Notes: generated by a model not told the origin, from the sequence alone. Counted from the stretch's first letter, positions 13,009 to 53,206 are shown. The stretch: DNA of 64,000 nucleotides from Patescibacteria group bacterium (GCA_038062895.1 JBBTWJ010000003.1:114448-178447); one strand, 5' to 3'. Translations and numbers: made by a program.

Positions 13009-13136
13009 CCAGGTAGTGAAAATTCGACTAATGATTGATAACCATGATCATCTAGTTAACCAAATATATTCAACTTGTATTAAACTTCCAGATAGATAGC
13101 ATCGCTTCGCGATGCGGTCGAATTTCTACTACCTGG
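13009..13136. repeat. inverted-repeat-bounded element, copy 1 (20-bp arms CCAGGTAGTGAAAATTCGAC / GTCGAATTTCTACTACCTGG around an 88-nt spacer)
   Basis: Arms are 18/20 complementary; the left arm sits 1 nt from the lon ATG; same arm family at 18564, 20336 and 53075. Confidence 0.55.
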
Positions 13137-13185
13137 TTGGCACTCAAGTATAACAAGTGCCAACAACCTCGTCAAGCGACAAAAC

Positions 13186-14049
13186 CTAGCGGAATTCGGA
13201 AAGAAGTGTATCCAAATCAAAGCTCCCAAGTGGTTGGTTTGCCAGCGGACCTGCGGCCAACGCCGGCTCACGATCTTCACTCGTCGGGGCTGCTTCCCGG
13301 TAAAACACACCGAGGGGAATCTTATCTCCCCATTCAAACGCTTTTTCAATAGCCGCGAGGCGATTATCGGGCACATACTTGACTGAATCGAGTTGGTACA
13401 ACCGAGTCCGATACCATTGATACGTATGGACGTGATTGAACGTGACGCATGGCTGCAAAATATCAAGAACGGAAAACCCCTTATGCTTGATCGCCTCGGC
13501 TATAAGCTTGGTGAGTCCCGGCATGTCACCGGCAAACCCACGCGCGACGAACGTCGCACCGGAAACCAGGGCTAACGCCAACGGATTAACCGGCGTATCC
13601 ACGACCCCCTCCGGGGTAGATTTCGTCTTGAGATGATCCTTCGCCGTGGGAGAGGCCTGTCCCGTCGTTAAGCCATACACCTGATTGTCATGGATGAGAA
13701 CCGTGATATCCGGATTCCGTTTCGCCGCATGGATAAAGTGATTACCTCCCTCGCCCAAACAATCACCATCTCCCGCAATGGCAATGACTGGAATCGTATG
13801 ATTGGCAAGCTTCGCGCCTTGCGCTATCGGCAATGACCGGCCATGAAGGCCTTCGACTCCATAGGTGCGCATCCAGGCGCTCATATTCCCATGACAGCCA
13901 ATCCCATAAACAAAAAGAGCGTCATCCGGGCCGATCCCAAGCTCAACCAATGCGTTTTTGAGTGCCATCCAGATACCGAAATCCCCACACCCCGGACACC
14001 AGGTTGGAAGGTAACCGGTTTTAAAACTGTCTGCAGTGATGGATGTCAT
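13186..14049 (-). CDS. korB: 2-oxoacid:ferredoxin oxidoreductase beta subunit (TPP-binding)
   Basis: CPGCGDFG thiamine-PP/FeS-proximal motif and the GDGD TPP-binding region. Confidence 0.85.
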   Translation of the reverse strand: MTSITADSFKTGYLPTWCPGCGDFGIWMALKNALVELGIGPDDALFVYGIGCHGNMSAWMRTYGVEGLHGRSLPIAQGAKLANHTIPVIAIAGDGDCLGEGGNHFIHAAKRNPDITVLIHDNQVYGLTTGQASPTAKDHLKTKSTPEGVVDTPVNPLALALVSGATFVARGFAGDMPGLTKLIAEAIKHKGFSVLDILQPCVTFNHVHTYQWYRTRLYQLDSVKYVPDNRLAAIEKAFEWGDKIPLGVFYREAAPTSEDREPALAAGPLANQPLGSFDLDTLLSEFR

Positions 14050-14052
14050 ATG

Positions 14053-14092
14053 GTTACTTAGTTACTTAGTTACTTAGTTAGTTGCTTGGTTA
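14053..14092. repeat. tandem octamer GTTACTTA x3 plus degenerate copies, abutting the korB start codon
   Basis: Read directly from the sequence in the korA-korB intergenic leader. Confidence 0.5.
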
Positions 14093-14122
14093 CATTTGCT
14101 TTGTGCAAAGTAACATACATTG

Positions 14123-15862
14123 CTAACGCACTCTCTCAATAATCTCCTCGGGCAAGAACGGTCTGCCATCGTATTTTAAGAGTTTTTCCGTAATATCGAT
14201 ACCCGTCTGTTGGCGGACAAGAGAAGCCAACTGTCCGGTAGCATTTTGTTCTATATCAATGATACGGGTGGATCCCGTCAAGAGCGAGGTAGCAGATTCT
14301 ACAGGGAACGGATAAAGCCACGGAAAATAAATAACTTTTGCTGATCCGCCACCCACATGAAAGTCCGTCATGTTCATCGCTTCCAAAACCGGCCCAAGTG
14401 TAGAACCCCATGTCACTATTGTCGTTTGGGCAGATGCATCACCGTGAACCACGGGCGGCATGATGACGTTCTTAATTGCACTAAGTTTCTTCAGACGCCT
14501 GTCTACCATGGCTTGGCGAATCCCAGCATCTTCCGATACCAGTCCCGTTTCATCGTGTTCGTAGGAATTTGCCATGTATTGCCCGCCCTTCATACCGGGG
14601 AAGCTACGGGCGGAAACCCCATCAGAAGCGCCCAAATCAAAGCGTTTATAACTCGTTTCACTTGGGTGTTCTCCCTGCGGCATCACCTTTCCCCGATCAA
14701 TGCTCACCGTGCCTTTCATTTTGCTTGTCAGCACGCACCACTGGCTTTCATTGAGATATTTATCCGTAAGCACAAAAACCGGCACATGAAATTGTTCTGC
14801 GAGTTCAAACGCTTTGATCGTGAGTTCATAGGCCTCTGTAGCATCAAACGGAGCTAACACAATCCTGGGAAACTCTCCATGCCCCGCATGAATAATAAAT
14901 CCAAGATCTCCCTGCTCGGTCCAGGTAGGCATACCAGTGGCAGGACCAACCCGCATCCCCATATCAATCACCAGCGGCACTTCTATCATCCCTGCCAAGG
15001 ATACCCCTTCGACCATGAGGGCGAACCCTCCGCCACTCGTGGCCACCATACTGCGGACACCACTCAACGCCGCACCGATAGCCATATTGATACCGGCAAT
15101 CTCATCTTCCGGCTGTTTATAGACAATTCCTAGTGATTTAGCGTGATCAGCCAGAAACGAAATAAGAGAATTGATGGGCGTCATGGGATAAATTGCCGCG
15201 AATTTAAGTCCCGCCCGTACCGCGCCTACTCCCACGGCCTCGCTGCCGTTTATGAGAAGATAATCCTCCTTCTTGAGAGGTACTTCAAGCGTAAGAGATG
15301 AAAAAGACGAGACCACGCCAGTCACCGCGTCAAATCCCGCGCGGGCAATATCGATGTTATGGTTGACGACCGCCTCACCCTTTTTCCCAAACTGATCACG
15401 GATGACGTCGGCTAAATACTCAAACGGTGCGCCAAGAAATGCAAAACTTGTTCCGAGTGCCACTGTGTTGCGCATGATCACGTCTCCACCTTTTTTTTGC
15501 ACTAATTCACGAAATGGAACCGGAACAAGAGAAACCCCTTTGGGTAATTCTTCACCCTTCCAATCATAATCATTCGGGTCAAAGACAAGAACCGTGCCTT
15601 CTGTCATGTCTTTTTTATGAAGCTCGACCGTCTCTTTATTGAGGGCAATCAAAATGTGAAGCGAACGATCTAGGGAATGAAACGGTTTTGTAGCAATCCG
15701 TACCGTCACCGCGTTATGCCCTCCGCGGATAAGTGAGGGGTATTCGTTGAGTGAAAATATATAATACCCGTGCCTGGAAAAAGCCCGGGCAAGCATCGTG
15801 CCGGAAGCCATGATACCAAATCCTGCTTCCCCCCCTATTTTCCATGTAATGGACTGTGCCAT
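14123..15862 (-). CDS. korA: 2-oxoacid:ferredoxin oxidoreductase alpha subunit (fused gamma-alpha domains)
   Basis: N-terminal WKIGGEAGFGI gamma-type domain followed by a POR alpha domain; ATG at 15862 preferred over the TTG at 15889. Confidence 0.85.
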   Translation of the reverse strand: MAQSITWKIGGEAGFGIMASGTMLARAFSRHGYYIFSLNEYPSLIRGGHNAVTVRIATKPFHSLDRSLHILIALNKETVELHKKDMTEGTVLVFDPNDYDWKGEELPKGVSLVPVPFRELVQKKGGDVIMRNTVALGTSFAFLGAPFEYLADVIRDQFGKKGEAVVNHNIDIARAGFDAVTGVVSSFSSLTLEVPLKKEDYLLINGSEAVGVGAVRAGLKFAAIYPMTPINSLISFLADHAKSLGIVYKQPEDEIAGINMAIGAALSGVRSMVATSGGGFALMVEGVSLAGMIEVPLVIDMGMRVGPATGMPTWTEQGDLGFIIHAGHGEFPRIVLAPFDATEAYELTIKAFELAEQFHVPVFVLTDKYLNESQWCVLTSKMKGTVSIDRGKVMPQGEHPSETSYKRFDLGASDGVSARSFPGMKGGQYMANSYEHDETGLVSEDAGIRQAMVDRRLKKLSAIKNVIMPPVVHGDASAQTTIVTWGSTLGPVLEAMNMTDFHVGGGSAKVIYFPWLYPFPVESATSLLTGSTRIIDIEQNATGQLASLVRQQTGIDITEKLLKYDGRPFLPEEIIERVR

Positions 15863-15870
15863 ATCTTTAA

Positions 15871-15906
15871 CAATACAACAACCTGACAATACAACAAATT
15901 GACAAT
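15871..15906. promoter_or_regulatory. direct repeats TGACAATACAACAA (two copies plus a half copy) in the 66-bp divergent region between korA and the ANL ligase
   Basis: CAATACAACAA at 15871-15881 and 15887-15897, TGACAAT again at 15900; the same AACAATAC unit recurs four times inside the ligase CDS. Confidence 0.4.
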
Positions 15907-15928
15907 TTCTGAAAGTGCATGAATTCTC

Positions 15929-18319
15929 ATGCGACGATCGACTACTATATATAGTATGAATGATCTACCGCGGGTCCGACTACCTGTAAACTCTGTCGAA
16001 GAATTACTCGCAAGTCACGCGGGTACATATGCTGATAAAGCGGCGCTCATCGCGGTTCACGTAGATACCGACGAGATCAATACGATTTCTTACCGCGAGC
16101 TGAACATCCTGGTCGGCCGGGCGGCAGCGTGGCTTTCCTCTCTGGGCATCAAGCGCGGTGACCGGTTTGCAATCCTCATGCCCAACGCTCCGGAAGTCAT
16201 AATCCTGGAACTGGCCGGTGCGATAATCGGGGCCGCAACGGTCCCGCTGGATTCCAAACGCGATACCATAGAACGCAAACTATTCAAATTAAAAGACACC
16301 GGCGCAAAAGCAATCCTTATCAAACAAGAGGAAAAATCTGCAGAAGAAAGAGAAACTCTTGCACAGGCATTACCGCATCTCACAATCCGCACATGGACCA
16401 CGTTTGGTGAATTTCAAACCATACTGACAGGGCCAGGCCCTGTCACTCACGCAAAGGGATCGCTTGAGGACTACTACGTGATCCTCTATACGTCAGGGAC
16501 AACCGCGCTTCCCAAAGGAGTCCTTCTTTCCACACGAGCGTGCCTGTTAAACGCTATGGGCATCCTACAGTGGCAACAATTTACTCACGATGATGTCTTT
16601 TCTATTGTGCTCCCGCTTCATCACATCAACTCGACAGAATTTAGTCTTGCTATGATACTCGCCGGCGGTACGATCGTTCTCAATTCCCGCTATAGCGCAA
16701 GCCACTTCTGGCAGGTAATCAACCGCTTCCGGATAACCAACACGAGTGTCGTTCCCACGATCCTCCACGATCTTCTTACCCGTGTCGATGAATTTATATC
16801 ATTACACCTGGATGTATCCTCACTTAAACGCATCTGTATCGGTTCAGCTCCTGTACTACCAGAAGAAACAATGCGATTCTACGATTCATTTAAGGTACGA
16901 GTCACTCAAGGATATGGCCAGACCGAAACTGCGCTGCGCGTGGCCGGTGTGCCGGTAGACACAAACGAAGAGACGTACCGCGAATTTGTCAAAAGCAACA
17001 CGATCGGTACCGAGCTTGCCAATAATCACCTCGCAATTATGGACGGGAATAATAATGAAAAGAACGAAAGCGAGGAGGGGGAAATATGCATAGCCGGCCC
17101 AATTCTCGCCGGTGGATACCTCAATAACCCGGAGGAATCAACAAAATCATTCAAAAATAGCTGGTTTCATTCCGGCGACCTCGGGTACTGGAAAATGATC
17201 GACGGCAAAAAATATTTCTTCATCATCGGGCGTATCAAAGAAATCATCATCAAAGGCGGAGTCAACCTCTCACCGTCTGCCATAGAAGATGCACTTCTCA
17301 AAGCATTTCCCCAAATCGATGAGGTGAGCGTCGTGGGATACCCGGATGCGCGTATGGGGGAAGAAATTGCAGCGGTTATAGTCTTGACAGGGTTGGACCC
17401 TGTCAAACAACAGGGCTCAACCCTAGCGGACAAATTTGTCCAATTAGTTTTAGATGCTGCTCAAAATGGAAAAATCTCCGGACTTTCCCGTTATGAGTCG
17501 CCCAAAAAGGTATTTATTGTCGATACCCTCCCGAAAACCTCGACCGGAAAAATCCAAAGAGTTGAGATAAAAAAAAGTGTTGCCACACGTATCAAAAGCG
17601 AGCACCCCCACCATTACTATGTCCGCACCATTGCTAATCATGAGACGGAAATCATGAAACAGGCTCTCAAGATAAATAACGCGCGGTTTCCGTTTATTCC
17701 ATCACTATTGGAGGAATTTATTGCTCGAACACAAAATGGGCTCTTTTTCGGTGTTTTTGATGAATCTGAAGGTCTGATCGGTTCTCTCTCCTGTATCAGG
17801 ACGAACCATACGATGATAGAAAAGGTCAAAACGTGGAATGAAGCAACCGCAGAGGGAACGCTCGCAAATCACGATCCCCACGGAGATACGCTTGCATGCG
17901 TGGCGATCTCTGTCAAAACAACATCGAACAATACAACAATACAACAATACAACAATACTAACGAAGATACATTACAACGCCTCGCAAAAAAATATATTAA
18001 AGAATACGTAAGTTTGGACAAAGATCACGTGCTAAATTTTCATAAACGATCCAAGGGAGGAATCCCTGGGGCTACGGTATGGAAAATTTTGGAAAACGGC
18101 AGACGGGAAGATAAAGAGGCCATAGGGTACAACGTCCTCATGAAGTATCCTACCATCGATGTATCCACAACTATTATCCGGAGTAACGCACCCTCTCCGG
18201 CAATTCTTCTCATCGAACACGCACTTCTTTACGCGAAAGAGCATGGAGTAAAAGATGTCATTGCGTTCTCCCGTCCTTCGGGGTTTCGAAAATATCTGGC
18301 AGAAAAACTACGGATATAA
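15929..18319 (+). CDS. ANL-superfamily adenylate-forming enzyme (acyl-CoA synthetase-like) fused to a ~250-aa C-terminal GNAT-like domain
   Basis: A3 YTSGTTALPKG, A5 GYGQTE, A7 YHSGDLGYW, A8 GRIKEIIIKGG, A10 PKTSTGKIQR; the C-terminal domain ends ...AILLIEHALLYAKEHG, which is acyltransferase-like. Confidence 0.7.
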   Translation: MRRSTTIYSMNDLPRVRLPVNSVEELLASHAGTYADKAALIAVHVDTDEINTISYRELNILVGRAAAWLSSLGIKRGDRFAILMPNAPEVIILELAGAIIGAATVPLDSKRDTIERKLFKLKDTGAKAILIKQEEKSAEERETLAQALPHLTIRTWTTFGEFQTILTGPGPVTHAKGSLEDYYVILYTSGTTALPKGVLLSTRACLLNAMGILQWQQFTHDDVFSIVLPLHHINSTEFSLAMILAGGTIVLNSRYSASHFWQVINRFRITNTSVVPTILHDLLTRVDEFISLHLDVSSLKRICIGSAPVLPEETMRFYDSFKVRVTQGYGQTETALRVAGVPVDTNEETYREFVKSNTIGTELANNHLAIMDGNNNEKNESEEGEICIAGPILAGGYLNNPEESTKSFKNSWFHSGDLGYWKMIDGKKYFFIIGRIKEIIIKGGVNLSPSAIEDALLKAFPQIDEVSVVGYPDARMGEEIAAVIVLTGLDPVKQQGSTLADKFVQLVLDAAQNGKISGLSRYESPKKVFIVDTLPKTSTGKIQRVEIKKSVATRIKSEHPHHYYVRTIANHETEIMKQALKINNARFPFIPSLLEEFIARTQNGLFFGVFDESEGLIGSLSCIRTNHTMIEKVKTWNEATAEGTLANHDPHGDTLACVAISVKTTSNNTTIQQYNNTNEDTLQRLAKKYIKEYVSLDKDHVLNFHKRSKGGIPGATVWKILENGRREDKEAIGYNVLMKYPTIDVSTTIIRSNAPSPAILLIEHALLYAKEHGVKDVIAFSRPSGFRKYLAEKLRI
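17927..17958. repeat. tandem octamer AACAATAC x4 inside the ANL-ligase CDS (encodes SNNTTIQQYNNT)
   Basis: Four perfect 8-nt units; 32 nt is not a multiple of 3 yet the frame is intact. Confidence 0.6.
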
Positions 18320-18562
18320 TTGTTTGCCGGTTTCATCCGTAATGAAAATTGCCATAACGGGACAACCTTTGGCAGCCTCGAGGAGCGTCTCATCGGTTTC
18401 CCCATCTACCGTATCTAAAATTATGGCTTTCGCTTCATCATCCAGTGCCCAAGCTTTGGGCGCAATAGCAATACACGTCGCCGCTCCAATGCAGAGGCTC
18501 CTATCGATCCGCATCGTCAGCTTGCGAATCTTCCGTTTCACTTTTGGGTCGTTATCATCCAT
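18308..18562 (-). CDS. small single-cluster ferredoxin
   Basis: CIGAATC ... CP cysteine pattern; start set at the ATG that sits 1 nt from an inverted-repeat arm (MDDNDPKVKRK...) rather than the longer listed ORF. Confidence 0.6.
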   Translation of the reverse strand: MDDNDPKVKRKIRKLTMRIDRSLCIGAATCIAIAPKAWALDDEAKAIILDTVDGETDETLLEAAKGCPVMAIFITDETGKQLYP

Positions 18563-18563
18563 G

Positions 18564-18698
18564 CCAAGTAGTGAAATTTCGATCTTTGCCTTACGCGTCA
18601 AAATTTCAGTATCCTCTAATTATAAATCAGTATCATTGAATTCCAAATAGGTCATTCGATATGGCAAAGATAAAGCGTATCGAAATTCTACTACCTGG
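18564..18698. repeat. inverted-repeat-bounded element, copy 2 (arms CCAAGTAGTGAAATTTCGAT / ATCGAAATTCTACTACCTGG)
   Basis: Left arm 1 nt from the ferredoxin ATG; right arm 12 nt from the sufU stop. Confidence 0.5.
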
Positions 18699-18710
18699 CA
18701 TGATGTGATT

Positions 18711-19124
18711 CTATATGGACTGAATGGCTTTGTGCAAGACCTCAAGGGAAAGCGTCGCACACTTGACGCGGGACGGCGTCAGTGTTGTTCCGAGCATACG
18801 TTCAATATCTTGCATCGTCATTTTTTTGAGTGAAGCAAACCCCATGCCCTTCACTTTTTCCGTCAACATGGAAGCACTGGCCTGACTGATCGCACAACCA
18901 TCACCGGAGAAGCGGATATCATCAATTGTGACGCCTGACGCCTGACCCGCTTCGCCTGAGATTGAGCGAGGCGAGCGCCTGACGCACAATTCAATAACGA
19001 TCCGGTCGCCGCAGGTCACGTTGCCCTCCTCCATCACAATATCCGGCTTATCGAGGTGGCCGAAGTTACGGGGATGCTTATAATGATCGAGGATTACGTC
19101 GCGATAGAGATCCATATTAAGCAA
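18711..19124 (-). CDS. sufU: SUF FeS-cluster sulfur-transfer/scaffold protein SufU
   Basis: DHYKHPRNFG, CGD, GDGCAISQASASMLTE and RVKCATL match B. subtilis SufU. Confidence 0.85.
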   Translation of the reverse strand: MLNMDLYRDVILDHYKHPRNFGHLDKPDIVMEEGNVTCGDRIVIELCVRRSPRSISGEAGQASGVTIDDIRFSGDGCAISQASASMLTEKVKGMGFASLKKMTMQDIERMLGTTLTPSRVKCATLSLEVLHKAIQSI

Positions 19125-20334
19125 ACAATTTCTTAACTTTCTCTAATCCTTCTACCAGAGCGTCTACGTCCGACTTCGTGGTGTAGACGTAAAAAGAAGC
19201 GCGGGCGGTCGCCGGTATGTGTAAATATTCATGGAGAGGCATGGCGCAGTGGTGCCCGGCCCGGATACATACATTATCCTCATTTAATAGTTGGGCGATG
19301 TCATGGGCATGGCTGCCTTTCATCGTGAAAGCAATAACACCCCCGCGGTCTTTTGCCTTGGGGGGACCAATCACAGAAACGCCCTTGATCGTAGCCAAGC
19401 CTTTAAGCGCGTAGTCGGTAATCTCTACTTCATGACTGCGCACCGCATCCATACCTATACTTGTAAGGTAATCAACTGCCGCACCCAACCCAATGACCCC
19501 CGCAATATGCGGAGTCCCGGCTTCAAATTTATGCGGCGGTGCGGCAAAAACCGTCCGATCCGCATGGACCTCTTTGATCATCTCGCCGCCATATTGATAG
19601 GGAGCAAATTCCTCCAGCAATGCACGGTGTGCCCAGAGGACACCGACGCCGGTGGGACCGAGCATCTTATGGCTTGAAAATGCAACCGCGTCCGCCCCCC
19701 AATCTTTTACATTTATCTTCATATGCGGCACAGCCTGGGCTGCATCAACAAGAACAAGACAATTGGGATTAATGCGCTTGGCAATCCGGCTAATTTGCCG
19801 TATTGGGTTGATGGTACCCAGGACATTGGATACGGCGGTAATGGCAAGGAGCTTTGTTTTTTTCGTAACAAGCTTTTCTAAATCCTTTATGTTGAGTACT
19901 CCGGAGGCATCAATGTTCCAAATCCGAAACGGCACACCAAATCCCAACGCCAATTGTTGCCATGGAACAAAGTTGGAATGATGCTCCATGATGCTCGTAA
20001 CCAACTCACCCCCGTGAAGATTCATGCGCGAGAGGGCGTTCATGACCACGTTAAGGGATTCTGATGCATTGCGGGTAAATACTATCTCATCGGAAGAAAA
20101 AGCGCCGATAAAACGCGCCACCTTGTCGCGTGCTTTTTCAAACTCTTCCGTGGCTTCCTCGCTTGTCGTATAAATACCACGGAATACATTAGCACAATAG
20201 GTGGTGTAATACTCTTCTTCTTTGGCTATCACCTGATCGGGCTTGAGCGACGTGGCAGTCGAGTCCAGATAGACCAACCGCTTTCCGTTTATCTTCCTTT
20301 TCAATTGAGGAAAATCCCTGCGAAGATCTTTCAT
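19117..20334 (-). CDS. sufS: cysteine desulfurase SufS
   Basis: Class V aminotransferase fold with the SufS-type RAGHHCA motif. Confidence 0.9.
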   Translation of the reverse strand: MKDLRRDFPQLKRKINGKRLVYLDSTATSLKPDQVIAKEEEYYTTYCANVFRGIYTTSEEATEEFEKARDKVARFIGAFSSDEIVFTRNASESLNVVMNALSRMNLHGGELVTSIMEHHSNFVPWQQLALGFGVPFRIWNIDASGVLNIKDLEKLVTKKTKLLAITAVSNVLGTINPIRQISRIAKRINPNCLVLVDAAQAVPHMKINVKDWGADAVAFSSHKMLGPTGVGVLWAHRALLEEFAPYQYGGEMIKEVHADRTVFAAPPHKFEAGTPHIAGVIGLGAAVDYLTSIGMDAVRSHEVEITDYALKGLATIKGVSVIGPPKAKDRGGVIAFTMKGSHAHDIAQLLNEDNVCIRAGHHCAMPLHEYLHIPATARASFYVYTTKSDVDALVEGLEKVKKLFA

Positions 20335-20335
20335 A

Positions 20336-20467
20336 CCAGGTAGTAGAAACTCGATATATTTTTTTTCAACATAAAAAAATATAGAATCCTTATAATCTTT
20401 ACAAAATATTATATACCCTCATAGTCTGCTCCTGGACCAACTCAACAATCGAGTTTTCACTACCTGG
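20336..20467. repeat. inverted-repeat-bounded element, copy 3 (arms CCAGGTAGTAGAAACTCGAT / ATCGAGTTTTCACTACCTGG)
   Basis: Left arm 1 nt from the sufS ATG; right arm directly abuts the Rieske-gene stop codon. Confidence 0.55.
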
Positions 20468-20779
20468 TCATATCGCAATCAATATATCATTTTCTTCTAC
20501 TTTCACGGAATAACTTTTTACATCCACGACCGCGGGCAAACTCATAACCTTGCCGTTGGTGACGTCAAACTGTGCGCCGTGGCAGCCGCAGGTAACGACG
20601 CTGCCATCTATAAATCCTTCACTCCCCAACGAACACTGCGCATGGCTGCACGTATCGTCTATGGCAAAAAACTCGCCGTCAACATGAGCAACGGCAATTG
20701 GCTTTCCGCCGACCATAACCGTTTTCATGCTTCCCGACGGAATATCATTTACGGAAAGCGCTTTTATAAAATCCGCCAT
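20468..20779 (-). CDS. Rieske [2Fe-2S] domain protein
   Basis: CSH-x16-CGCH Rieske ligand boxes. Confidence 0.8.
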   Translation of the reverse strand: MADFIKALSVNDIPSGSMKTVMVGGKPIAVAHVDGEFFAIDDTCSHAQCSLGSEGFIDGSVVTCGCHGAQFDVTNGKVMSLPAVVDVKSYSVKVEENDILIAI

Positions 20780-21399: not shown

Positions 21400-21517
21400 A
21401 TTTCTAACCGACTGAGCCTTCTCCCAAACCTGCCTTACTTGCTCCCGTGCTCTACGTGCACGCGTCGCAAGAGCGGCGATTCGGGACTTCGTCCTTCGAT
21501 AAACTCAGGACTCGCAT

Positions 21518-24130
21518 TTATCCAACACTTCCCTCCATTTGTAATTGAATAAGTCTATTTAATTCGACGGCGTACTCGAGCGGGAGTTCTTTGACGATGG
21601 GCTCGATAAATCCATTAACAATCATGGACTCTGCCTGTGCTTTGCCAATCCCGCGGCTTTCAAGATAAAATAGTTGTTCATCCCCGATTTTAGAAACTCT
21701 CGCCTCATGCTCGATCGACACATCCTGCTCATCTATCTTCATCGTGGGATAGGTATCGGAGCGCGAAGCAGCATCGAGCAGTAATGCGTCACAAACGACT
21801 TTACTTTTGCTGTTGGTGGCACCCGGGATTACTTGTACCAGCCCCCGGTACGACGTTCTCCCCCCGCCCCGGCTTATGGATTTGGAAATAATCTGTGATG
21901 TGGTTTCCGGCGCCAAGTGCACTACTTTCCCTCCTGCATCTTGATGTTGCCCTGCTCCGGCATAAGCAATCGAAAGGATTTCTCCGCGTGCTTTTCTCCC
22001 CACTAAATAGACGCTCGGGTACTTCATGGTGAGTTTGGAATTATGAACGATGAAGCCTTGTGAAATGAAATTGCCTGTCCCCTCAACTTCGATATCCCAT
22101 GTAGGAATCAGATCGGAGGACTGCTTAGAAACTACAACTGGCACTATCTCAACAGTGTTATGTAATGTAATGCTTGAGCGCCCGACGAGTCTATGCATTT
22201 GAAGTTTTTTTGTCGATCGCCCTAGTATTTGTTTACGCATACCCGTACTCACGAAGTTCGCAAATCTATAATCTATCGGAAAATCCAGCCTATACGCGCC
22301 ATGCGCGATAGATGACACACCTAAAATACGAACTCGTTTTGGTTGGCTGAATTCGACATGAAGTCGAGATGTAATTCCGAGCGTTACGAGAAGTGACGCA
22401 ATATCTTCCAAAAGCGGTCGATTGACCGATTTAATATGAAATCGGTCATCAATGTTCCCGTCGGCATCCAAGTAGCCTGCGATAAATGATAACCGTTGCG
22501 ACTGGGGAAGCGACCACACCCATTGAGGAACACGCTTAGTCGCTGCGGTACCTAAAAATCCGTTAAGGCGAAAAAGCTCTGTAATCTCTTTACTGCTCCA
22601 AGCGAGATGGTGACCATCGGATCGTTCGGTAGGTGCAATATTCGTCAACGTCCGCATACAACTCATTAAGCGTTCCCTTGCTCTATCTTGGCGAGGCGTC
22701 GAGAAACCAACTTTCGCCCAACGAATAACTCCTTTTGTTTTTCCAAAGCGCAAATCTATGTTGCCATCGCCAATCCAATACCCGAATAACCACATCATTG
22801 CATCATCTGTATGTGCTATTTTTATCATCCTGGCTGCTCTTATACGTGTCATTTTCAATGATGAAGCATACTGATTATATGATTCAAACGTTGTAATCAA
22901 CCCGGGCATCTTCAGTGAATATTGAGCACCATAATCAATAGAAACACGGGGAACAATTGCTTTTTTTAGCTGATCAGCACGGACGTATGCCAGTCGGTAC
23001 CGTCCGAGCTTCTTGGGTTTTTGGACATCGTATATATATGAATAAAATGGATGGTTAGCAGTAACTCTTAGTGTTCGTTTTCCGATGGAAACCGTATGTA
23101 CAGGTTGACGACCGGAAAAACGCTTCGCTTTTACTTTTTGGAAGCAGAGTATTCCTTTTTGGTCATCATAGGAGAGAACTTTATCACCTAACGCAAGAGA
23201 CTCAATTGTTTTCACTCCTTCGGGAGTAGTCACTGTCGAACCCTCTGCTAAACAACCTAAATTTCCGTCGACCCATTCCATGACGCCTTCCTCTTCTACC
23301 CGCGCGCGCTTGGTGACCAGGTTATAGACATTGGTACTCCAATTTTGGATGGTGGTGTAACGGACCCGCGCTCCCTTTTTCACAATGATCTCAACCACTG
23401 CGCTATGGAGTGAATCTGTCGTGTAAATGGGAGCGGTGCATCCTTCGACGTAATGGACGAAGCTCCCCTCCTCGGCAATGATGAGGGTGCGCTCGAACTG
23501 TCCCATGTTGGCCGCATTGATACGGAAATACGCCTGAAGCGGCAAGTCCACGCGTACGCCTTTGGGCACATACACAAATGAACCTCCGGACCAAACTGCG
23601 CTATTGAGCGCAGCAAATTTATTATCTCCGGGAGGAATAATGGTGCCAAAGTACTGTTTCACAATCTCCGGATGCTCACGAAGTCCCGAATCCATATCCA
23701 AAAAAATGACCCCTTTTTTGCTAAGCGTTTCATGAATACTTTTGTACACAACTTCCGACTCATACTGTGCGCTGACCCCCGAAAGAAATTTCTTTTCCGC
23801 CTCCGGAATGCCAATCCGGTCATACGTATCACGGATTTCTACCGGAAGATCCTCCCAGCGCGATGCACGTTTTTCCGTCGGATTAATATAGTAGTAGATA
23901 TCATCAAAATTGATAGTCGTGAGATCTCCCCCCCACGCGGGTAAGGGTTTGCGGAAAAATTGATCAAGCGCTTTCAGCCGGAACTGCCGCATCCAGGGAG
24001 GGTCATTTTTCCGTACGCTCAATTCTTCAACAACGGTGCGGTCGAGCCCTTTTTTTGATTTAAATACGTAATTTTCCGGCTTGCGGAAACCATATTTGTA
24101 ACTACCGTTTACTGGTTTAAATTGGAGCAT
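21518..24130 (-). CDS. sufB: FeS-cluster assembly protein SufB interrupted by a 405-aa intein
   Basis: Exteins total 465 aa and read as canonical SufB (...EWVDGNLG / SKLTMKYPSVYL...); the inserted segment starts with Cys and ends with His-Asn, followed by Ser. Confidence 0.9.
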   Translation of the reverse strand: MLQFKPVNGSYKYGFRKPENYVFKSKKGLDRTVVEELSVRKNDPPWMRQFRLKALDQFFRKPLPAWGGDLTTINFDDIYYYINPTEKRASRWEDLPVEIRDTYDRIGIPEAEKKFLSGVSAQYESEVVYKSIHETLSKKGVIFLDMDSGLREHPEIVKQYFGTIIPPGDNKFAALNSAVWSGGSFVYVPKGVRVDLPLQAYFRINAANMGQFERTLIIAEEGSFVHYVEGCTAPIYTTDSLHSAVVEIIVKKGARVRYTTIQNWSTNVYNLVTKRARVEEEGVMEWVDGNLGCLAEGSTVTTPEGVKTIESLALGDKVLSYDDQKGILCFQKVKAKRFSGRQPVHTVSIGKRTLRVTANHPFYSYIYDVQKPKKLGRYRLAYVRADQLKKAIVPRVSIDYGAQYSLKMPGLITTFESYNQYASSLKMTRIRAARMIKIAHTDDAMMWLFGYWIGDGNIDLRFGKTKGVIRWAKVGFSTPRQDRARERLMSCMRTLTNIAPTERSDGHHLAWSSKEITELFRLNGFLGTAATKRVPQWVWSLPQSQRLSFIAGYLDADGNIDDRFHIKSVNRPLLEDIASLLVTLGITSRLHVEFSQPKRVRILGVSSIAHGAYRLDFPIDYRFANFVSTGMRKQILGRSTKKLQMHRLVGRSSITLHNTVEIVPVVVSKQSSDLIPTWDIEVEGTGNFISQGFIVHNSKLTMKYPSVYLVGRKARGEILSIAYAGAGQHQDAGGKVVHLAPETTSQIISKSISRGGGRTSYRGLVQVIPGATNSKSKVVCDALLLDAASRSDTYPTMKIDEQDVSIEHEARVSKIGDEQLFYLESRGIGKAQAESMIVNGFIEPIVKELPLEYAVELNRLIQLQMEGSVG
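22040..23254 (-). mobile_element. intein with a LAGLIDADG homing-endonuclease domain inside sufB (residues 293-697)
   Basis: N-terminal CLAEGSTV splicing block, two LAGLIDADG motifs (LFGYWIGDGN and IAGYLDADGN), C-terminal ...FIVHN followed by +1 Ser. Confidence 0.85.
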
Positions 24131-34916: not shown

Positions 34917-35189
34917 TTAAGCGTTCTTGAGCGCTATTTTATCATCATTTATCAACAATTCTTTCTTAATCCGTGACCACGTCTTTAATTGAGCCTCTCG
35001 TTTCATTGCTTCTGCCCGGGATATAAAACTTTCCTGATAAACAAGCTCAAAGGAATTGAAGAAACGTACATATTTAGCTGATTTACTTCCTTTAGTGCGA
35101 TGCTCTTCCAATCGTCGGATGAGATTGTTCGTTTGACCAGTATAAAAGGTATTCGAAGAGGTAAGGAGAATATAGACGGAATAAGACAT
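34917..35189 (-). CDS. small GIY-YIG nuclease-family protein (YhbQ/UPF0213-like)
   Basis: VYILLTSSNTFYTGQTNNLIRRLEEH GIY-YIG core. Confidence 0.75.
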   Translation of the reverse strand: MSYSVYILLTSSNTFYTGQTNNLIRRLEEHRTKGSKSAKYVRFFNSFELVYQESFISRAEAMKREAQLKTWSRIKKELLINDDKIALKNA

Positions 35190-44920: not shown

Positions 44921-44987
44921 TCGTTTAAAAAGCATTATATGCGTATACTTTCAATCATAATTGAGAGGGGTACTGCTTTTGAAATCA

Positions 44988-45030
44988 ATAGAGGATTTTA
45001 AAGGAATTTAGAGGAGTTTAGAGGAATTTA
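44988..45030. repeat. purine-rich repeat patch (TTTAGAGGAATTTAGAGGAG)
   Basis: Same family as 36322-36446. Confidence 0.4.
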
Positions 45031-46785: not shown

Positions 46786-46857
46786 AGTTCGATTTCACTC
46801 ACTATGACCCAGAGCATAGTCGAAGGGTCATGGGCTCTATGATATCATAAGGCCATT

Positions 46858-48255: not shown

Positions 48256-48258
48256 AAC

Positions 48259-48296
48259 AACGGGAGATTACGGGAATATACGGGAAGTTAAGGGAG
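48259..48296. repeat. purine-rich repeat patch (ACGGGAGATTACGGGAATATACGGGAAGTTAAGGGAGA)
   Basis: Same family as 36322-36446; sits in the convergent cca/secF gap. Confidence 0.4.
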
Positions 48297-49172
48297 ACGT
48301 ATTTTTCTTTTCTCCCACCTATCCCACAAAATCAGGATCGGGGTGGCGACAAACGGCGATGAGTACGTACCCGAAACCGTCCCGATGAGGAGTGCCACGA
48401 CAAACCACCGAACCGACCCCCCTCCCATAAGGATGAGAGCCAAAAGCATGAACATGATAGTAAATGAATTTGTAAGCGACCGGCCCATTGTTTCGGTGAG
48501 TGCCCGGTCGGCAAGCTCATCAAACCGTGTCTTTTCATCTCTCCTTCGATATTCACGAATACGGTCAAACACCACGATCGTATCGTGAACCGAAAAGCTC
48601 ATGGTGGTCAGAAATGCCGTCACAAATAACGTATCAACTTCCACTCCCCGCAATACCCCTAAAAGTGAAAATACACCGAGAACCACCAAAAGGTCATGGA
48701 GGAGAGCAATAATAGCGGACACTCCGAACTTGATATTTTTGAAGGCATACGCGACATAGGCCAAAATACAAAAAATGGCAAGCACTGCAGCCACAACTGC
48801 TTTTCCCAAAAGTTCGCTTCCTAACACGGGACCGACCGTTTCGTTGCGCAAGATAGTCGCCGTACTACTGGATTCCCGTTCTACCATTTGTGAAAATCCG
48901 GCGACATTATCGCTTCCTTCGGGCTTGATACGCAGAAGATACGTATTGCTTCCGGAACTAAGAATACTCGCAATCGGTAGGTCCTGCTTTCGGGCAACAT
49001 CAGTCAAAATATTTTCCGGGACCGGCCGATCAAATGAAAACTCCAGAAGCGTCCCCCCAGTAAAATCGATAGATGGCCGAAGACCGTAACGGACGATCGA
49101 ATAAACGCCCGGCACAAGAATCAACCCTGAAATGAGGGCGTAGAGCCAAAGATATTTAGAAAATCTAATCAT
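48288..49172 (-). CDS. secF: protein translocase subunit SecF
   Basis: Six-TM SecF layout with conserved periplasmic-loop motifs. Confidence 0.9.
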   Translation of the reverse strand: MIRFSKYLWLYALISGLILVPGVYSIVRYGLRPSIDFTGGTLLEFSFDRPVPENILTDVARKQDLPIASILSSGSNTYLLRIKPEGSDNVAGFSQMVERESSSTATILRNETVGPVLGSELLGKAVVAAVLAIFCILAYVAYAFKNIKFGVSAIIALLHDLLVVLGVFSLLGVLRGVEVDTLFVTAFLTTMSFSVHDTIVVFDRIREYRRRDEKTRFDELADRALTETMGRSLTNSFTIMFMLLALILMGGGSVRWFVVALLIGTVSGTYSSPFVATPILILWDRWEKRKIRLP

Positions 49173-49180
49173 ATAGCATT

Positions 49181-49279
49181 AGGATATTCGAAAGTCGTTA
49201 TAACGAAATTTGAGATTCGTAATAGAAAGTCGAAATACGATTTTCGATAACGTATTTCTATTTTCGAAACAACGAATTT
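49181..49279. repeat. palindrome-rich intergenic element (second copy) between secF and secD
   Basis: Shares the blocks GATATTCGAAAGTCG, ATTCGTAATAGAAAGTCGAA, TTTCGATAACGTATTTC and TATTTTCGAAA with 24131-24253. Confidence 0.5.
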
Positions 49280-50656
49280 CTATTTTCCATTTATTGATTT
49301 CTCTCTATACAGCACTCTCACCAATGTCCTGGTAACAATAATACCGGTAAATAGTCCCACAATCACCCCAATAAATAAGGTGAGGGCAAAACCCCGCACC
49401 ATACCGGATGAGGGCAAAAATTGCCAGTTTCCGGGATTATAAAGGATGAGAGCCGTAAGGATCGTGGTAATGTTGGCATCCCTGATACTGTCCCACGCAC
49501 GCCCGAATGCCTGTTCCATCGCAATCCCCATGGGCTTCCCGCGCCGGCGCTCTTCTTTATACCGCTCAAATATAAGAATATTGCTGTCTACCGCCATGCC
49601 GATTGAAAGAATAAATCCCGCGATACCAGGAAGCGTCAGCGTCACCGGGATGATACGAAAGAGAGCAAATGTCACAAGTCCATACACCACAAGCGCAAGA
49701 TCCGCTAACAATCCAAGTTTCCCATATTGGGCAATCATAAAGATGGCAACAACAGAAAGACCGATGAGTCCCGCGCGTATGCTTTTGGTAACCGATGCCG
49801 CCCCAAGACTTGCCCCAATCGTGCGCTTCTCGACGACATTCACTGGTACCGGAAGAGCTCCGGCGGCAAGCTGGAGTGAAAGATTTTTCGCCTGATCGAC
49901 TGTGAATCCTCCCGTGATAACGGCTCTCCCATCGGTAATGGCAGTATTTACCCGCGGCCAGGTAAGCGGTTCATCATCCAGAAAAATAGCCAGACTGCGG
50001 TTGACGAGACGGGCTGTGGCCGAAGCAAACTTCGTGGCTCCCTCGCCGCTAAACTCAAGCGCCACTTGAGGAGCTCCCGTATCGCTTCCGAAATCAAGTT
50101 GGGCACTCTTCAAATCTTTGCCGGTGATGTGAACAGATGTCGTATTTGTGAGACTGGGTATCACGTATGCCGCTCCGGTCGCGGCTGCCGGATCAATAAA
50201 TTCCCGAAACTCAAGACTTGCCGTTTGTCCGATAAGGGCAACGGCCGACTCCACATCCGTCACTCCCGGAAGCTCGACGATAACCCGATAGGAATCTGAC
50301 GACTTGGACGTCTGTACGACCGGCTCACTGACCCCAAAAAAATTAACACGCCTATCGATAACTTGCCGGGAAGACTCTAATGCGTCATCCCGCTGCGAAA
50401 CAGGAATACCGGTCATATCTGCGTTAAGGACGATATGTGTCCCTCCGGAGAGATCCAAACCCAGATGCGTTTTGAACTGTTTCTGAATGTGAATATTAGC
50501 GGCATTAATGTTTATCTCCGGAGGGTTGATCGTGACATCAATGTGCTGACCAAAGAGCGTCTTCTGTATCCGAAAATTTTCCGGAAGATCAATAGCCGCA
50601 ACCACAATAGTCAGGAGGATTATGAAAAAAAATACCCGCTTGGGATTATGAAACAT
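49280..50656 (-). CDS. secD: protein translocase subunit SecD
   Basis: SecD periplasmic domain and a C-terminal six-TM bundle. Confidence 0.9.
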   Translation of the reverse strand: MFHNPKRVFFFIILLTIVVAAIDLPENFRIQKTLFGQHIDVTINPPEININAANIHIQKQFKTHLGLDLSGGTHIVLNADMTGIPVSQRDDALESSRQVIDRRVNFFGVSEPVVQTSKSSDSYRVIVELPGVTDVESAVALIGQTASLEFREFIDPAAATGAAYVIPSLTNTTSVHITGKDLKSAQLDFGSDTGAPQVALEFSGEGATKFASATARLVNRSLAIFLDDEPLTWPRVNTAITDGRAVITGGFTVDQAKNLSLQLAAGALPVPVNVVEKRTIGASLGAASVTKSIRAGLIGLSVVAIFMIAQYGKLGLLADLALVVYGLVTFALFRIIPVTLTLPGIAGFILSIGMAVDSNILIFERYKEERRRGKPMGIAMEQAFGRAWDSIRDANITTILTALILYNPGNWQFLPSSGMVRGFALTLFIGVIVGLFTGIIVTRTLVRVLYREKSINGK

Positions 50657-50680
50657 GTTGAATATTGTAACACGCGTGGA

Positions 50681-51274
50681 TTATAGTCCGTCAACGAGTT
50701 CTTCCTCATCTCCCACTACCATGACACGCGAACCGGTGAGAATGCCAATGACAAACGGATCACGACGGCGCTTGCGAAAAAGAAATTCTTCCTCCGTCAT
50801 CACGGTATAGTTAAGCTCACGTCCCCGCTTGGTTTCTTCGAGTTTAACAAGCTGCCCAAGCTCCGGAAGAACGACCGTGCCTACGACAAGAAGATCAACG
50901 TCATTTGAGCCCCGACTAGGCAAACCGCGCAGGAATCTGCCGGAGAGCATAACAAACTTGATCTTGCCCAATTTCGGCCGGTGTTTATAAATATCCCATC
51001 CGAGTCCATTAGTTTTTCCGATAAGCTCGATAAGCTCAAAATACAAAGGGTAATCTTTACGGAACATGTAAAAAAGACGGTTGGCACGGGCTTCCTTCGT
51101 CACCATGCCGGCTTTTTCCATGTGCGCGAGCTCCCGGCGCACGGCGTTGATCTCCTCATCAACCTTGCGCACGATATCCCGCACGTGAAAAATAGTACCC
51201 GGATGAGAAAGAAACAGGGACAACATCTTCACCCTGACTCTGGAGATAATTAAGTCTTCTAGTATCATATTCAC
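50681..51274 (-). CDS. winged-helix HTH fused to a minimal nucleotidyltransferase-fold domain
   Basis: N-terminal wHTH; C-terminal GSNDVDLLVVG (the GS-x-D-x-D motif of the Pol-beta superfamily). Confidence 0.55.
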   Translation of the reverse strand: MNMILEDLIISRVRVKMLSLFLSHPGTIFHVRDIVRKVDEEINAVRRELAHMEKAGMVTKEARANRLFYMFRKDYPLYFELIELIGKTNGLGWDIYKHRPKLGKIKFVMLSGRFLRGLPSRGSNDVDLLVVGTVVLPELGQLVKLEETKRGRELNYTVMTEEEFLFRKRRRDPFVIGILTGSRVMVVGDEEELVDGL

Positions 51275-51301
51275 TCCCTTCGGGGCAGAAGAAGAAATAC
51301 C

Positions 51302-52480
51302 TTATTTTTTAATCGGTGTTCCGATGGGCAACATTTCTATCCACAATTGACCACGATTGAGTTCAATTTCTTTTCCACCTGCGTCGTAAAACTTCATCCG
51401 TGCATTTCGCGTGGCTTTTTTCCAGGTAATAGGAATTTCCTTCCCATCCTGCCAGAGAAACCCCGTACCCGATCCAATATTTTCGTATAAAAGGTGCGCG
51501 TGTTGGTCAACCGGCCCGGTCTCTTTGGCAAACATAATAACGACCGCTTTTGCCGTCAACTGTTGTTTGGTTTCAAGATCCGTATGAGCCGCGCTACCGT
51601 TAAACCGTTTGTACATATTTGTGGCCGGATCGAAGTCCCATCGTACCCCGTACTCCTTTTCGTATCCTTTCCAGGCGACAAAACTTCCTGAAAATGAAGC
51701 ACTACGATCTCCCTCCTTCGCATCATCTTTAAACTTCCATGACTCAAAGGATTTATCCCATGTGACGCCCTTCGTATCCACGTTCGTCCAACCACGCTCG
51801 CTTGCCAACTTATAGAGCTTATCGGTAAAACAGACCATGGTATGTTCTGTCGCCACGGGATGATCCAAACGATCATAGTTCCTATAACACGTCGGGAAGG
51901 AAATGCCGAACTGATCCATATCTTTCACTTTCCATGTTTCGATCTGACACAATGCTTTCGCCCGCTCATCCACGGTGCCATCCTCGCAGCGTCCTGCACC
52001 ACCGACATGGTTGTAGAGAGCATCATACTCAAGAACCCACGGCAAGAAATACGTCCGTGCGCTTCGCACCGGCGCAAGCGTCACCGGAGCGGCTGCTGCC
52101 CCACAATAAAATACTCCCATGAACCGGGAAATGCCACCCTCTGCAACGGTTTCATACACAACATCCGCCGATGATAGTCCTGACTGGGGCCTGGCTTCTG
52201 CATGATTCTCGATCATGACGGCAAGTGGTCGACGCTTCTCCCACGTCTCCCGCTCGGGTTTGGTGAAATACATGCCATTAATCGGACACAACTCCGACTT
52301 AGGAAGACTCGGGTCAACCGCAAAATGACCTTGCGGTCCTTTGGATGCTGACTCTTGAGTGCTTGAATCCGCTTGCGCCCGGCTTCCCATCCATGAAAAA
52401 ATACCAAAGGAAAGACCGGTGGCGATCAGATACAATGCAAGACCAACAACGCTCATCATTAAGTATTTCTCTTTTTTCAT
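51302..52480 (-). CDS. DUF3048-domain protein (YerB-like) with an N-terminal anchor
   Basis: RPLAVMIENHAEARPQSGLSSADVVYETVAEGGISRF block. Confidence 0.65.
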   Translation of the reverse strand: MKKEKYLMMSVVGLALYLIATGLSFGIFSWMGSRAQADSSTQESASKGPQGHFAVDPSLPKSELCPINGMYFTKPERETWEKRRPLAVMIENHAEARPQSGLSSADVVYETVAEGGISRFMGVFYCGAAAAPVTLAPVRSARTYFLPWVLEYDALYNHVGGAGRCEDGTVDERAKALCQIETWKVKDMDQFGISFPTCYRNYDRLDHPVATEHTMVCFTDKLYKLASERGWTNVDTKGVTWDKSFESWKFKDDAKEGDRSASFSGSFVAWKGYEKEYGVRWDFDPATNMYKRFNGSAAHTDLETKQQLTAKAVVIMFAKETGPVDQHAHLLYENIGSGTGFLWQDGKEIPITWKKATRNARMKFYDAGGKEIELNRGQLWIEMLPIGTPIKK

Positions 52481-52959
52481 TTTTCTCCTATCGCCTGTTT
52501 GACGGCAGACAACTCCTCTTTGGATAATTCAATATCTTTGCCTTTTCCTTTCGTAATCTGTTTTACGTACCAGCGGTTACCGCTTCTGGCGTAGAGCGAG
52601 GTCATGACCACGCCATCGCTTTCGCCATCCAGAATCGCCATCGTAAAACTCTGCGATCCACCAGTATCAGAAAACGGGTTATACCGGACAATGCCGATTC
52701 GCTGTATATGACCCCTCCCGTCTACTTCCAACTGATCGACTGCTTTTTCTGCCCTTGTTGTACGAATTTTAAGACTTTGAAACTCTGTCAAAAGTCCGTC
52801 CAGAACCTGACTTAATGTCGTACCGCTCACTCCGCGTATAAGACGGTTATAATGGACTTGGAGCTTGGCAACAATATATGTTAACGCGCAAAATCCCAAT
52901 ATCAAGAGAGCTAATAATCCGATAATCAAACTTTCATTGAGCACCACTGTATTGATCAT
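52477..52959 (-). CDS. DUF4446-family membrane protein
   Basis: N-terminal TM segment plus the conserved RYNPFSDTGGSQSFTMAILD block. Confidence 0.6.
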   Translation of the reverse strand: MINTVVLNESLIIGLLALLILGFCALTYIVAKLQVHYNRLIRGVSGTTLSQVLDGLLTEFQSLKIRTTRAEKAVDQLEVDGRGHIQRIGIVRYNPFSDTGGSQSFTMAILDGESDGVVMTSLYARSGNRWYVKQITKGKGKDIELSKEELSAVKQAIGEK

Positions 52960-53074
52960 CTTACGATTACCGATAAAGAATTGTCAATCATGAATTGAAC
53001 CGACAAGTTGACAAAGTTACTTCGGCCGTGTTACGCTCGTGGACACTTGAGGCTAAATAGCTTTGATGACCATG

Positions 53075-53206
53075 CCAGGTAGTAGAAATTCGACCGCGTG
53101 CTGTGCACGCAAAAACTCCTGGCGATAACTGTACATAAAAAATCGGTAAGAAAAGACAACAAACGGCAATAATAAATACGGGAGTTGTCGAATTTTCACT
53201 ACCTGG
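53075..53206. repeat. inverted-repeat-bounded element, copy 4 (arms CCAGGTAGTAGAAATTCGAC / GTCGAATTTTCACTACCTGG)
   Basis: Right arm 1 nt from the ATG of the + strand ORF at 53208; left arm followed on the minus strand by C-ATG and a 6-codon ORF. Confidence 0.55.

Follow-up and report, generated by a model that had tools for sequence, protein, structure and literature searches.

The window analysed here is a stretch of 64,000 nucleotides from a Patescibacteria group bacterium (GCA_038062895.1, JBBTWJ010000003.1:114448-178447), and it contains four copies of a short element that is bounded by inverted 20-bp arms and placed at start codons. We consider, with a probability of about 0.75, that these copies are derivatives without an open reading frame (ORF), similar to miniature inverted-repeat transposable elements (MITEs), of a mini element of the candidate phyla radiation (CPR) that carries a lone GIY-YIG nuclease gene and inserts into TATG, mostly at start codons. 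The main lines of evidence are target-site duplications, empty sites in relatives, a full-length form with the same ends and a strong enrichment at gene starts.

Seven arms in the window match CCAGGTAGTRGAAAWTCGAC with at most three mismatches, against a chance expectation of 0.01, and an eighth (18564-18583, CCAAGTAGTGAAATTTCGAT) is somewhat more diverged. The eight arms make four pairs, at 13009-13136, 18564-18698, 20336-20467 and 53075-53206, in agreement with the inverted-repeat loci reported in an initial annotation of this sequence. All four copies lack an ORF and are 128 to 135 bp long. It was also correctly annotated that an arm lies 1 nt from the ATG of lon (13007), of a ferredoxin gene (18562), of sufS (20334) and of a plus-strand ORF (53208), and that the third copy exactly fills the gap between the Rieske stop codon and the sufS start codon. 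The further statement that the distal arms are followed by ATG or TTG does not apply to this third copy, where TCA, the Rieske stop codon, follows.

The mobility of these units is revealed by their flanks. Copy 3 (20336..20467, minus strand, 132 bp, arms 20336-20355 and 20448-20467) stands between two minus-strand copies of TATGA, of which the one at 20331..20335 holds the sufS ATG and the one at 20468..20472 holds the Rieske TGA stop. The strand assigned to a copy is the sense of the nuclease ORF in the full-length relatives described below, 5'-CCAGGTAGTGAAA...TTTCTACTACCTGG-3'. Copy 2 (18564..18698, plus strand, 135 bp, arms 18564-18583 and 18679-18698) is located between NifU (stop 18711-18713) and the ferredoxin gene (ATG 18560-18562, minus strand), and its flanks are CATG at 18560..18563, which includes the ferredoxin ATG on the minus strand, and CATG again at 18699..18702. 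Both sites were found empty in a close relative, locus L199 of our survey, which has a SufS 96% identical to that of the window and flanking DNA with 95-97% nucleotide identity. Its Rieske/sufS junction reads GATTGCGA-TATGA-AAGATCTTCGC (GCGA-TATGA-AAGATC), and its NifU/ferredoxin junction reads TAGAATCACAT-CATG-GATGATAAC (CACAT-CATG-GATGAT; in extended form, TAGAATCACAT-CATG-GATGATAACGAC). Removing copies 3 and 2 from the window, each together with one of its two flanking duplicates, gives these same sequences. Five more distant relatives (L194, L196, L197, L200 and L201) are also without the element at both junctions. The ATGA that copy 3 now splits was originally shared by the Rieske stop and the sufS start; as TATGA was duplicated, Rieske and sufS each own one copy. 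That the four window units are mobile insertions is thus practically certain, and the absence of copies 2 and 3 from L199, despite its 96% identical SufS, indicates that the insertions are recent.

The same features were found in a wider family. Genome contigs, with one genome per species, were scanned with TCGARWTTYYACTACCTGG, a pattern that does not contain the start codon, and at least 113 loci matched. Among the matches listed, the inverted pairs come essentially all from the CPR, with Saccharibacteria, Parcubacteria, Gottesman-, Portnoy-, Harrison-, Yanofsky- and Doudnabacteria and unclassified Patescibacteria represented, while Massilia, Cnuella and actinobacterial genomes show only unpaired arms that are compatible with chance. 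Other apparently unpaired arms were degenerate pairs, pairs with nested insertions or similar chance matches outside the CPR. The 109 pairs fall into three size classes, of ~60-80 bp, ~112-155 bp and 314-327 bp. Directly outside the arms, 65 of the 109 copies have an exact 4-bp direct repeat, mostly CATA/TATG and also TATA, TGGA, CAAG, TACG, TTTA or AAAA. As this repeat occurs in varied sequences, the "N-ATG" beside the arm is a target-site duplication that lies outside the element. The unit ARM-N-ATG, which had been taken as the conserved one, is therefore not maintained: its second part varies among copies, and the sites without an element in close relatives show that the insertion was precise.

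The arms are not a plain inverted repeat, as had been assumed. In 106 of the 109 pairs, one arm contains GTGAAA and the other GTAGAA, which leaves a fixed G.T and A.C at stem positions 10/11 and gives the element a direction. At stem positions 1-9 and 12-20, 92-99% of the pairs are Watson-Crick, double compensatory changes occur at positions 3, 6, 14, 15 and 17-20, and pairing ends sharply past position 20. A single arm is not self-complementary. The ORF-less forms of ~130 bp and ~67 bp have these arms in common, and their interiors fall into subfamilies. The spacers were said to show no mutual similarity, which is true inside the window and does not extend across genomes. The interior of copy 2 groups with those of L007, L029, L034, L036, L037, L051 and others, in a subfamily of the form AATTTCGA...GAAAGGA...GGCAAAG; copies 4, 3 and 1 group with L080, L057 and L013, respectively, and the interior of copy 1 is similar to that of L013. 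The view that the elements are not simple MITEs is reversed by these additional copies, whose spacers align into subfamilies, an outcome that the initial annotation had itself named as refuting, and whose arms also bound a GIY-YIG-encoding form. Terminal inverted repeats, duplication together with presence/absence polymorphism, and small dispersed non-coding copies were all found, and by structure the element is a MITE.

The full-length form was recognised in four elements of 314-327 bp from the genome contigs, in which one ORF fills the interior and matches the GIY-YIG family PF01541 with E values of 1e-15 to 1e-16. The encoded nuclease has 88-91 aa and consists of a single bare domain. Of the first 600 candidates from a metagenome scan with these four proteins, 342 were confirmed as relatives. 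Both arms bound 68 of the best 80 metagenomic homologues, and 67 of these 68 have one GA and one AG arm. The usual layout reads TATG, CCAGGTAGTGAAAATTCGAC, nGCGATT, ATG...nuclease...stop, (G)TCGAATTTCTACTACCTGG and then TATG-host gene, with the host gene downstream and co-oriented. The nuclease ORF thus begins 7 nt past one arm, and its stop codon abuts the other. A profile search returned at least 3,249 homologue clusters (90% identity, E <=1e-10); every organism-named cluster among them belongs to the CPR, and their annotations are only "GIY-YIG nuclease family protein", "putative endonuclease" and "excinuclease ABC subunit C". Residues Y6, Y17, R27, H31 and E63 are invariant in 38 nuclease sequences. 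The AlphaFold model has a mean pLDDT of 86, and its nearest folds are UPF0213 (1zg2, 1ywl) and the branched-DNA nuclease SLX1, followed by UvrC-N and I-TevI.

The ORF-less copies are linked to this form by their ends, which they share with the 315-325 bp GIY-YIG element, and it is very likely that the window copies derive from it. Locus L010 carries an in-frame internal deletion of the nuclease ORF and still reads MPGSENSTKIMFH joined to TNQGSRLLKRMLKEYFY, which shows how ORF-less forms arise. A longer autonomous element with the same arms was sought, and none was found among the matches listed. Whatever lies between the arms of ~190 distinct elements is either non-coding or the nuclease ORF, and paired arms are at most ~460 bp apart. 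No transposase ORF of the DDE, DEDD, HUH or serine type lies between these arms, the sole enclosed ORF being GIY-YIG PF01541. We rather favour the nuclease as the mobilising enzyme.

The association with start codons extends to the whole family, as ~70% of 109 copies in other genomes have one arm separated by exactly 1 nt from the ATG of an ORF with at least 60 codons. The association was also scored on reconstructed empty sites, where a TATG was counted as gene-start-like if it opened an ORF of at least 60 codons with no in-frame ATG upstream. By this measure, 60% of the ~130-bp copies and 52% of the full copies entered a gene-start-like TATG, compared with 10.9% of a background of 6,810 TATG sites in the same loci. 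The ~67-bp class is mostly away from start codons (31/41). A further subfamily (L115, L131, L164, L174, L179, L183, L188 and L193), whose arms begin with CCGGGTAGTG, duplicates TGGA within GGTGGACCGG contexts and is also away from start codons. Target preference therefore differs between subfamilies. The initial interpretation is partly supported by these data: the link with the start codon is real, and its cause is the duplication made by a mobile element.

In the full-length copies, the duplicated start codon is often joined to the nuclease gene. Among the 37 full copies that keep the upstream duplicated ATG, 26 have it in frame with the nuclease, where one third is expected by chance (~1e-6 by a normal approximation that ignores the relatedness of the copies). 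The fusion reads ATG CCA GGT AGT GAA AAT TCG ACn GCG ATT ATG, which is translated as MPGSENSTAI-MFYY..., and many gene calls in databases start with MPGSENST. In L140, L185 and L191 the nuclease has no internal Met, so that the captured ATG is the only start codon there. At the other end, the nuclease stop lies 20-24 nt ahead of the host ATG. Captured start codons of this kind probably serve the expression of the nuclease.

A Shine-Dalgarno (SD)-like motif precedes only 3 of 90 occupied sites and 8 of 79 long ORFs of the window. In many window ORFs the ATG comes 6-7 nt after an extended -10 box, TGnTAnAAT, in a leaderless layout, for example at the ATGs at 9478, 26438, 38842 and 46858, which suggests that leaderless mRNAs may be the prevailing kind in this CPR genome. 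At the distance of a leaderless promoter, 33% of the occupied starts and ~7% of the controls have a TANNNT hexamer.

These observations give the following course of events. The full element, of ~315-325 bp with two imperfect inverted 20-bp arms around a single nuclease ORF, integrates at a YATR target of 4 bp (sometimes 5 bp), most often TATG, and duplicates it. When the TATG stands at a gene start, the host gene keeps one ATG, separated from the distal arm by 1 nt, and the other ATG is joined to the proximal arm, in most full-length copies in the reading frame of the nuclease. The arm-1 nt-ATG pattern arises because the duplicated TATG target holds the start codon. In this way the element would borrow the start codon of its host to make the nuclease and probably the host promoter too, in genomes that are poor in SD motifs and often leaderless. 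At leaderless genes, the promoter and the 5'-terminal AUG would be taken over for the nuclease, and the host gene would be read by re-initiation ~20 nt past the nuclease stop. The ORF-less window copies would have moved in trans, through a nuclease encoded elsewhere in the genome. A circle or a tandem junction of the element would read CTACCTGG-TATG-CCAGGTAG.

A stronger statement would be that these elements constitute a new class of transposable element, with a ~90-aa GIY-YIG protein of the SLX1/UPF0213 fold as the sole protein, which recognises the arms, cuts and pastes into YATR and acts as a start-codon trap. We advance this only tentatively, and place it a little below an even chance. 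The arms would be recognised possibly as a hairpin or cruciform with the fixed G.T/A.C mismatch, staggered breaks of 4-5 nt would be made at YATR, the nuclease would be produced as the MPGSENST fusion, and the regenerated AUG would be returned to the host gene. No description of the element design or of the arm sequence was found in the searchable full-text literature, and the initial annotation had likewise matched the repeats to no described class.

Several points weigh against the derivation and mechanism proposed here. The counts of loci are those of the matches listed, and the copies are not phylogenetically independent. No full-length copy is present in the window, where the sole GIY-YIG gene (34917-35189, minus strand, 90 aa, PF01541 with E 3e-15) is 33-35% identical to the element nuclease and has no arms. 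Copy 1 is flanked by CATG on one side and TTGG on the other, so that an intact duplication is not present, and copy 3 alone of the four window copies has the majority orientation. The duplicated ATG and the nuclease are in different frames in 11 of the 37 full copies. For the ORF-less copies, the distance from the end of the short frame begun by the duplicated ATG to the host ATG downstream ranges over 24-126 nt, without clustering near the host ATG, so simple translational coupling fails as an account of host expression, and a tight coupling of this kind was rejected for these copies. The activity of the nuclease on the arms is a prediction, and we know of no transposon that cuts and joins with a ~90-aa GIY-YIG hydrolase alone. 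A terminal inverted repeat with a 4-bp duplication is, moreover, the classic signature of a DDE transposase.

This signature leads to the first rival explanation, that the copies are ordinary MITEs moved by a DDE-type transposase with the same arms, the GIY-YIG gene being a passenger or a selfish settler. Terminal repeats of 20 bp with duplications of 4-5 bp are typical of DDE elements, and a hydrolytic nuclease of 90 aa has no obvious strand-joining activity. The arm asymmetry is also flipped relative to the ORF in 10 of the 68 full copies, which means that interior and arms can be uncoupled. Against this, all of the ~190 distinct elements are of ~460 bp or less and enclose only the nuclease ORF or non-coding DNA. 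Besides, the ORF fills the interior exactly and shares its frame with the duplicated ATG in 70% of the cases, which looks like co-adaptation rather than cargo. A DDE origin is accordingly regarded as unlikely, at odds of about the same order as the rival that follows.

The second rival explanation is a device kept by the host at the RNA level, in which the 20-bp stem 5' of the AUG would be cut by RNase III to give near-leaderless mRNAs, or would act as a bridge between the AUG and a stop codon, promoter or 5' end located upstream. The folding of arm-spacer-arm RNAs, suggested by the initial annotation, gave the proposed 20-bp stem in the predicted transcripts of all four copies, with minimum free energies of -36 to -51 kcal/mol and z-scores of -4.5 to -7.9. 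The strong pairing at 18 of the 20 stem positions (92-99%), with its many double compensatory changes, is in line with such a device. So is the constancy of the arms where interiors differ, as between copy 4 and the element at the orthologous site in L060. Essential-looking genes (lon, sufS and the ferredoxin gene) tolerate a 130-nt insert at the start codon, and a review on ribosome biogenesis in the CPR treats RNase III in that context, together with RNase J and PNPase. A promoter-like site upstream of copy 1 (13147..13175, minus strand; TTGACG, a 17-nt spacer and TG-TATACT, identified by consensus match) sits 10 nt upstream of its distal arm; if this candidate promoter is used, the whole of copy 1 would be the 5' leader of the lon mRNA.

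The composition of the stem argues otherwise. Its non-Watson-Crick pairs comprise 39 A.C and 34 G.T, whereas a selected RNA stem should favour G.U, and with the two about equal there is no wobble signature of selection on the RNA strand. The expected covariation between the arms was thus confirmed as to pairing and compensatory changes, and the part of it that would point to RNA is absent. The same covariation is expected from one protein that reads both ends, or from a DNA hairpin or cruciform substrate, and single-stranded DNA of the elements folds into the same stem with a 2x2 internal loop. Arms also occur at sites other than start codons, and they stand in either orientation with respect to the gene. 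Rfam returned no family match for the elements, only two tRNAs reaching the gathering threshold in the whole window, which agrees with the lack of a described class in the initial annotation. Since the insertions are absent beside a 96% identical SufS, and hence recent, host selection has had little time. A host-level RNA function of the stem is for these reasons improbable. Such a function would be gained after insertion and be compatible with mobility, and through it, by RNase III processing or by translational control, the stem might affect lon, the ferredoxin gene and sufS.

Classical homing, in which recombinational repair would copy the element into empty start-codon sites cut by the nuclease, with no transposition, is very improbable: GIY-YIG is a classic family of homing endonucleases and the same host genes are occupied in different genomes (a secA-like gene starting with MSILTKIFGD in L130 and L133/L134, and the copy 4 site in L060), but dozens of unrelated genes are hit, which leaves no flanking homology for repair, homing yields no target-site duplications such as those present here, and the nuclease lacks the DNA-binding domain of I-TevI-type enzymes. 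Further candidate readings were rejected. A promoter or leaderless-promoter motif in the arm was discarded, since there is no acceptable -10 hexamer at the right distance and the N-ATG varies with the duplication. Mimicry of an SD or anti-SD sequence is reduced to a 4-nt AGGU core in the wrong arm. An in-frame translated insert, as in the RPE elements of Rickettsia, is not compatible with lengths that are not multiples of three and with interior stop codons. A replication-strand bias like that of IS200/IS605 was not apparent, as GC skew is uniform and there are two copies in each orientation, a weak test with n=4.

Among known systems, compared by their published descriptions, the closest to the start-codon element is Ssn with its NTS/SRM hairpin repeats. 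Ssn proteins are single-domain GIY-YIG nucleases specific for single-stranded DNA (SsnA has 94 aa), and its authors noted that the NTS-ssnA-NTS architecture resembles that of an insertion sequence (Chenal et al., Nat Commun 2025, PMC11893778). Both systems have a GIY-YIG protein of ~90 aa whose catalytic Tyr, Tyr and Glu are placed almost alike, with Y6, Y17 and E64 in SsnA corresponding to Y6, Y17 and E63 in the element, and in both the gene is flanked on its two sides by a repeat that is also dispersed as many ORF-less copies. The Ssn repeats, however, are self-contained palindromes of ~30 nt, whereas the arms of the element are the halves of one inverted repeat. Duplications, empty sites, start-codon targeting and in-frame capture of an ATG are not reported for Ssn (PMC11893778), which is described mainly from Pseudomonadati, while the element comes from the CPR.

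The Correia/NEMIS MITEs of Neisseria are similar in size (100-155 bp), in terminal repeats of ~20-26 bp, in a short duplication and in the many gene-adjacent copies; they are also co-transcribed, with repeats that form an RNA stem. Cleavage of the Correia stem by RNase III has been reported, and these elements duplicate TA. They differ from the element described here, which has a YATR/TATG duplication of 4-5 bp, a strong preference for start codons and a partner that encodes a GIY-YIG protein. GIY-YIG ORFs were also observed in non-intron insertions of CPR ribosomal RNA genes and considered not homing-like (Tsurumaki et al., J Bacteriol 2024, PMC11270868). These insertions share the host group and the protein superfamily with our element and fit a transposon-like element; arms, duplications and start-codon targeting are not described there (PMC11270868). 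The same family might be behind some of the short non-intron insertions in the CPR ribosomal RNA genes.

REP/REPIN-RAYT systems and the IS200/IS605 family resemble the element in having short structured repeats with many ORF-less and few protein-coding copies, and recognition of a DNA hairpin by a small nuclease is plausible for all of them. RAYT and TnpA are HUH (Y1) enzymes, REPs are individually palindromic, and no target-site duplication is made. The element differs from these systems in its duplications of 4-5 bp, its GIY-YIG enzyme and its non-palindromic arms. Free-standing genes such as T4 seg and I-TevI are, like the element, selfish GIY-YIG genes located between host genes and using host expression signals. 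Those enzymes have an added DNA-binding domain and one cognate site, spread by repair-based homing and have no inverted-repeat ends or duplications. The element protein is, unlike them, a bare domain of 88-91 aa, found at many unrelated sites with duplications. Measured against the definitions of these classes, the element is neither a DDE insertion sequence nor a REP/RAYT system nor a homing endonuclease gene.

If the proposed origin is true, an element of ~320 bp with one 90-aa protein would be the smallest self-contained DNA transposon. The enzyme family would be new to transposition with inverted repeats and duplications, and targeting by start-codon capture was not found described. It would also account for many of the small CPR genes annotated as GIY-YIG, "putative endonuclease" or "excinuclease ABC subunit C", and for many such gene calls that begin with MPGSENST; annotation pipelines should mask these elements. 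The elements bear on how reduced, largely SD-free genomes tolerate 130-320 bp on their start codons, and they make leaderless initiation and re-initiation in the CPR testable. A sequence- or structure-specific nuclease of 90 aa with a 20-bp site is a possible tool, as has been proposed for the Ssn enzymes.

The remaining window copies and their surroundings complete the picture. Copy 1 (13009..13136, plus strand, 128 bp, arms 13009-13028 and 13117-13136) is antisense to lon, whose ATG occupies 13005-13007 on the minus strand, 1 nt off the arm. Copy 4 (53075..53206, minus strand, 132 bp, arms 53075-53094 and 53187-53206) is flanked by CATG at 53071-53074 and TATG at 53207-53210. The ATG at 53208 starts a plus-strand ORF of 96 aa, for which a Pfam search gave no match, and the ATG on the other side starts a mere 6 codons. 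Copies 1 and 2 are oriented one way and copies 3 and 4 the opposite; copy 3 has the same orientation as sufS, the arrangement of the majority in the family. Pfam matches beside the copies are Lon, Fer4, Rieske, NifU and SufBD, and SufS was named by a homologue search. This SufS is 100% identical to a protein labelled "Patescibacteria group bacterium" and 85% identical to one from Gottesmanbacteria, and the window comes from a relative of Candidatus Gottesmanbacteria. Some elements of the survey are in metagenome-assembled genomes named "uncultured Gammaproteobacteria bacterium" (L011, L013, L031, L051, L057 and L060, in CAYHFH01, CAYLQG01 and CAYVAR01). These labels are probably wrong, because L060 is orthologous to the copy 4 locus and the window SufS is identical to a Patescibacteria protein.

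Some minor structures were observed in and around the arms. Three elements from different genomes (L012 at ~2620-2720, L028 at ~135-160, and L076) carry a GC-rich palindrome, CCTGCCTGCCGGCAGGCAGG, inside the right arm between TTTTC and ACTACCTGG, and L069 has a different nested insert at the same arm position; the palindrome may be another tiny mobile repeat that is aimed at the arm. Tandem elements with one TATG between them were found in L123, L126, L166, L026, L043 and L056, as would be expected if a second copy entered the duplication of the first. Most ORF-less copies have a short GC-rich hairpin directly inside one arm, as at 13103-13116 plus the arm and at 53095-53110 in the window, and beside the TCAC arm in L006, L022 and L041. 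Its stems (GTTCGC..GCGAAC, TCCCGCC..GGCGGGA, GCGTGC..GCACGC) vary between copies, so that the structure is conserved and the sequence is not, and some of them resemble the TCCCGC..GCGGGA core of the Neisseria NTS repeat.

The armless GIY-YIG gene at 34917-35189 adjoins tRNA-Gln, in a low-GC stretch (32-36 kb, GC 0.38-0.41). SufB (21518-24130, minus strand) has 870 aa and contains Hint/intein and LAGLIDADG domains; an intein-bearing SufB is also present in L197 and L198, and the SufB of L194 has 459 aa. With this intein, the suf operon harbours selfish elements of two kinds.

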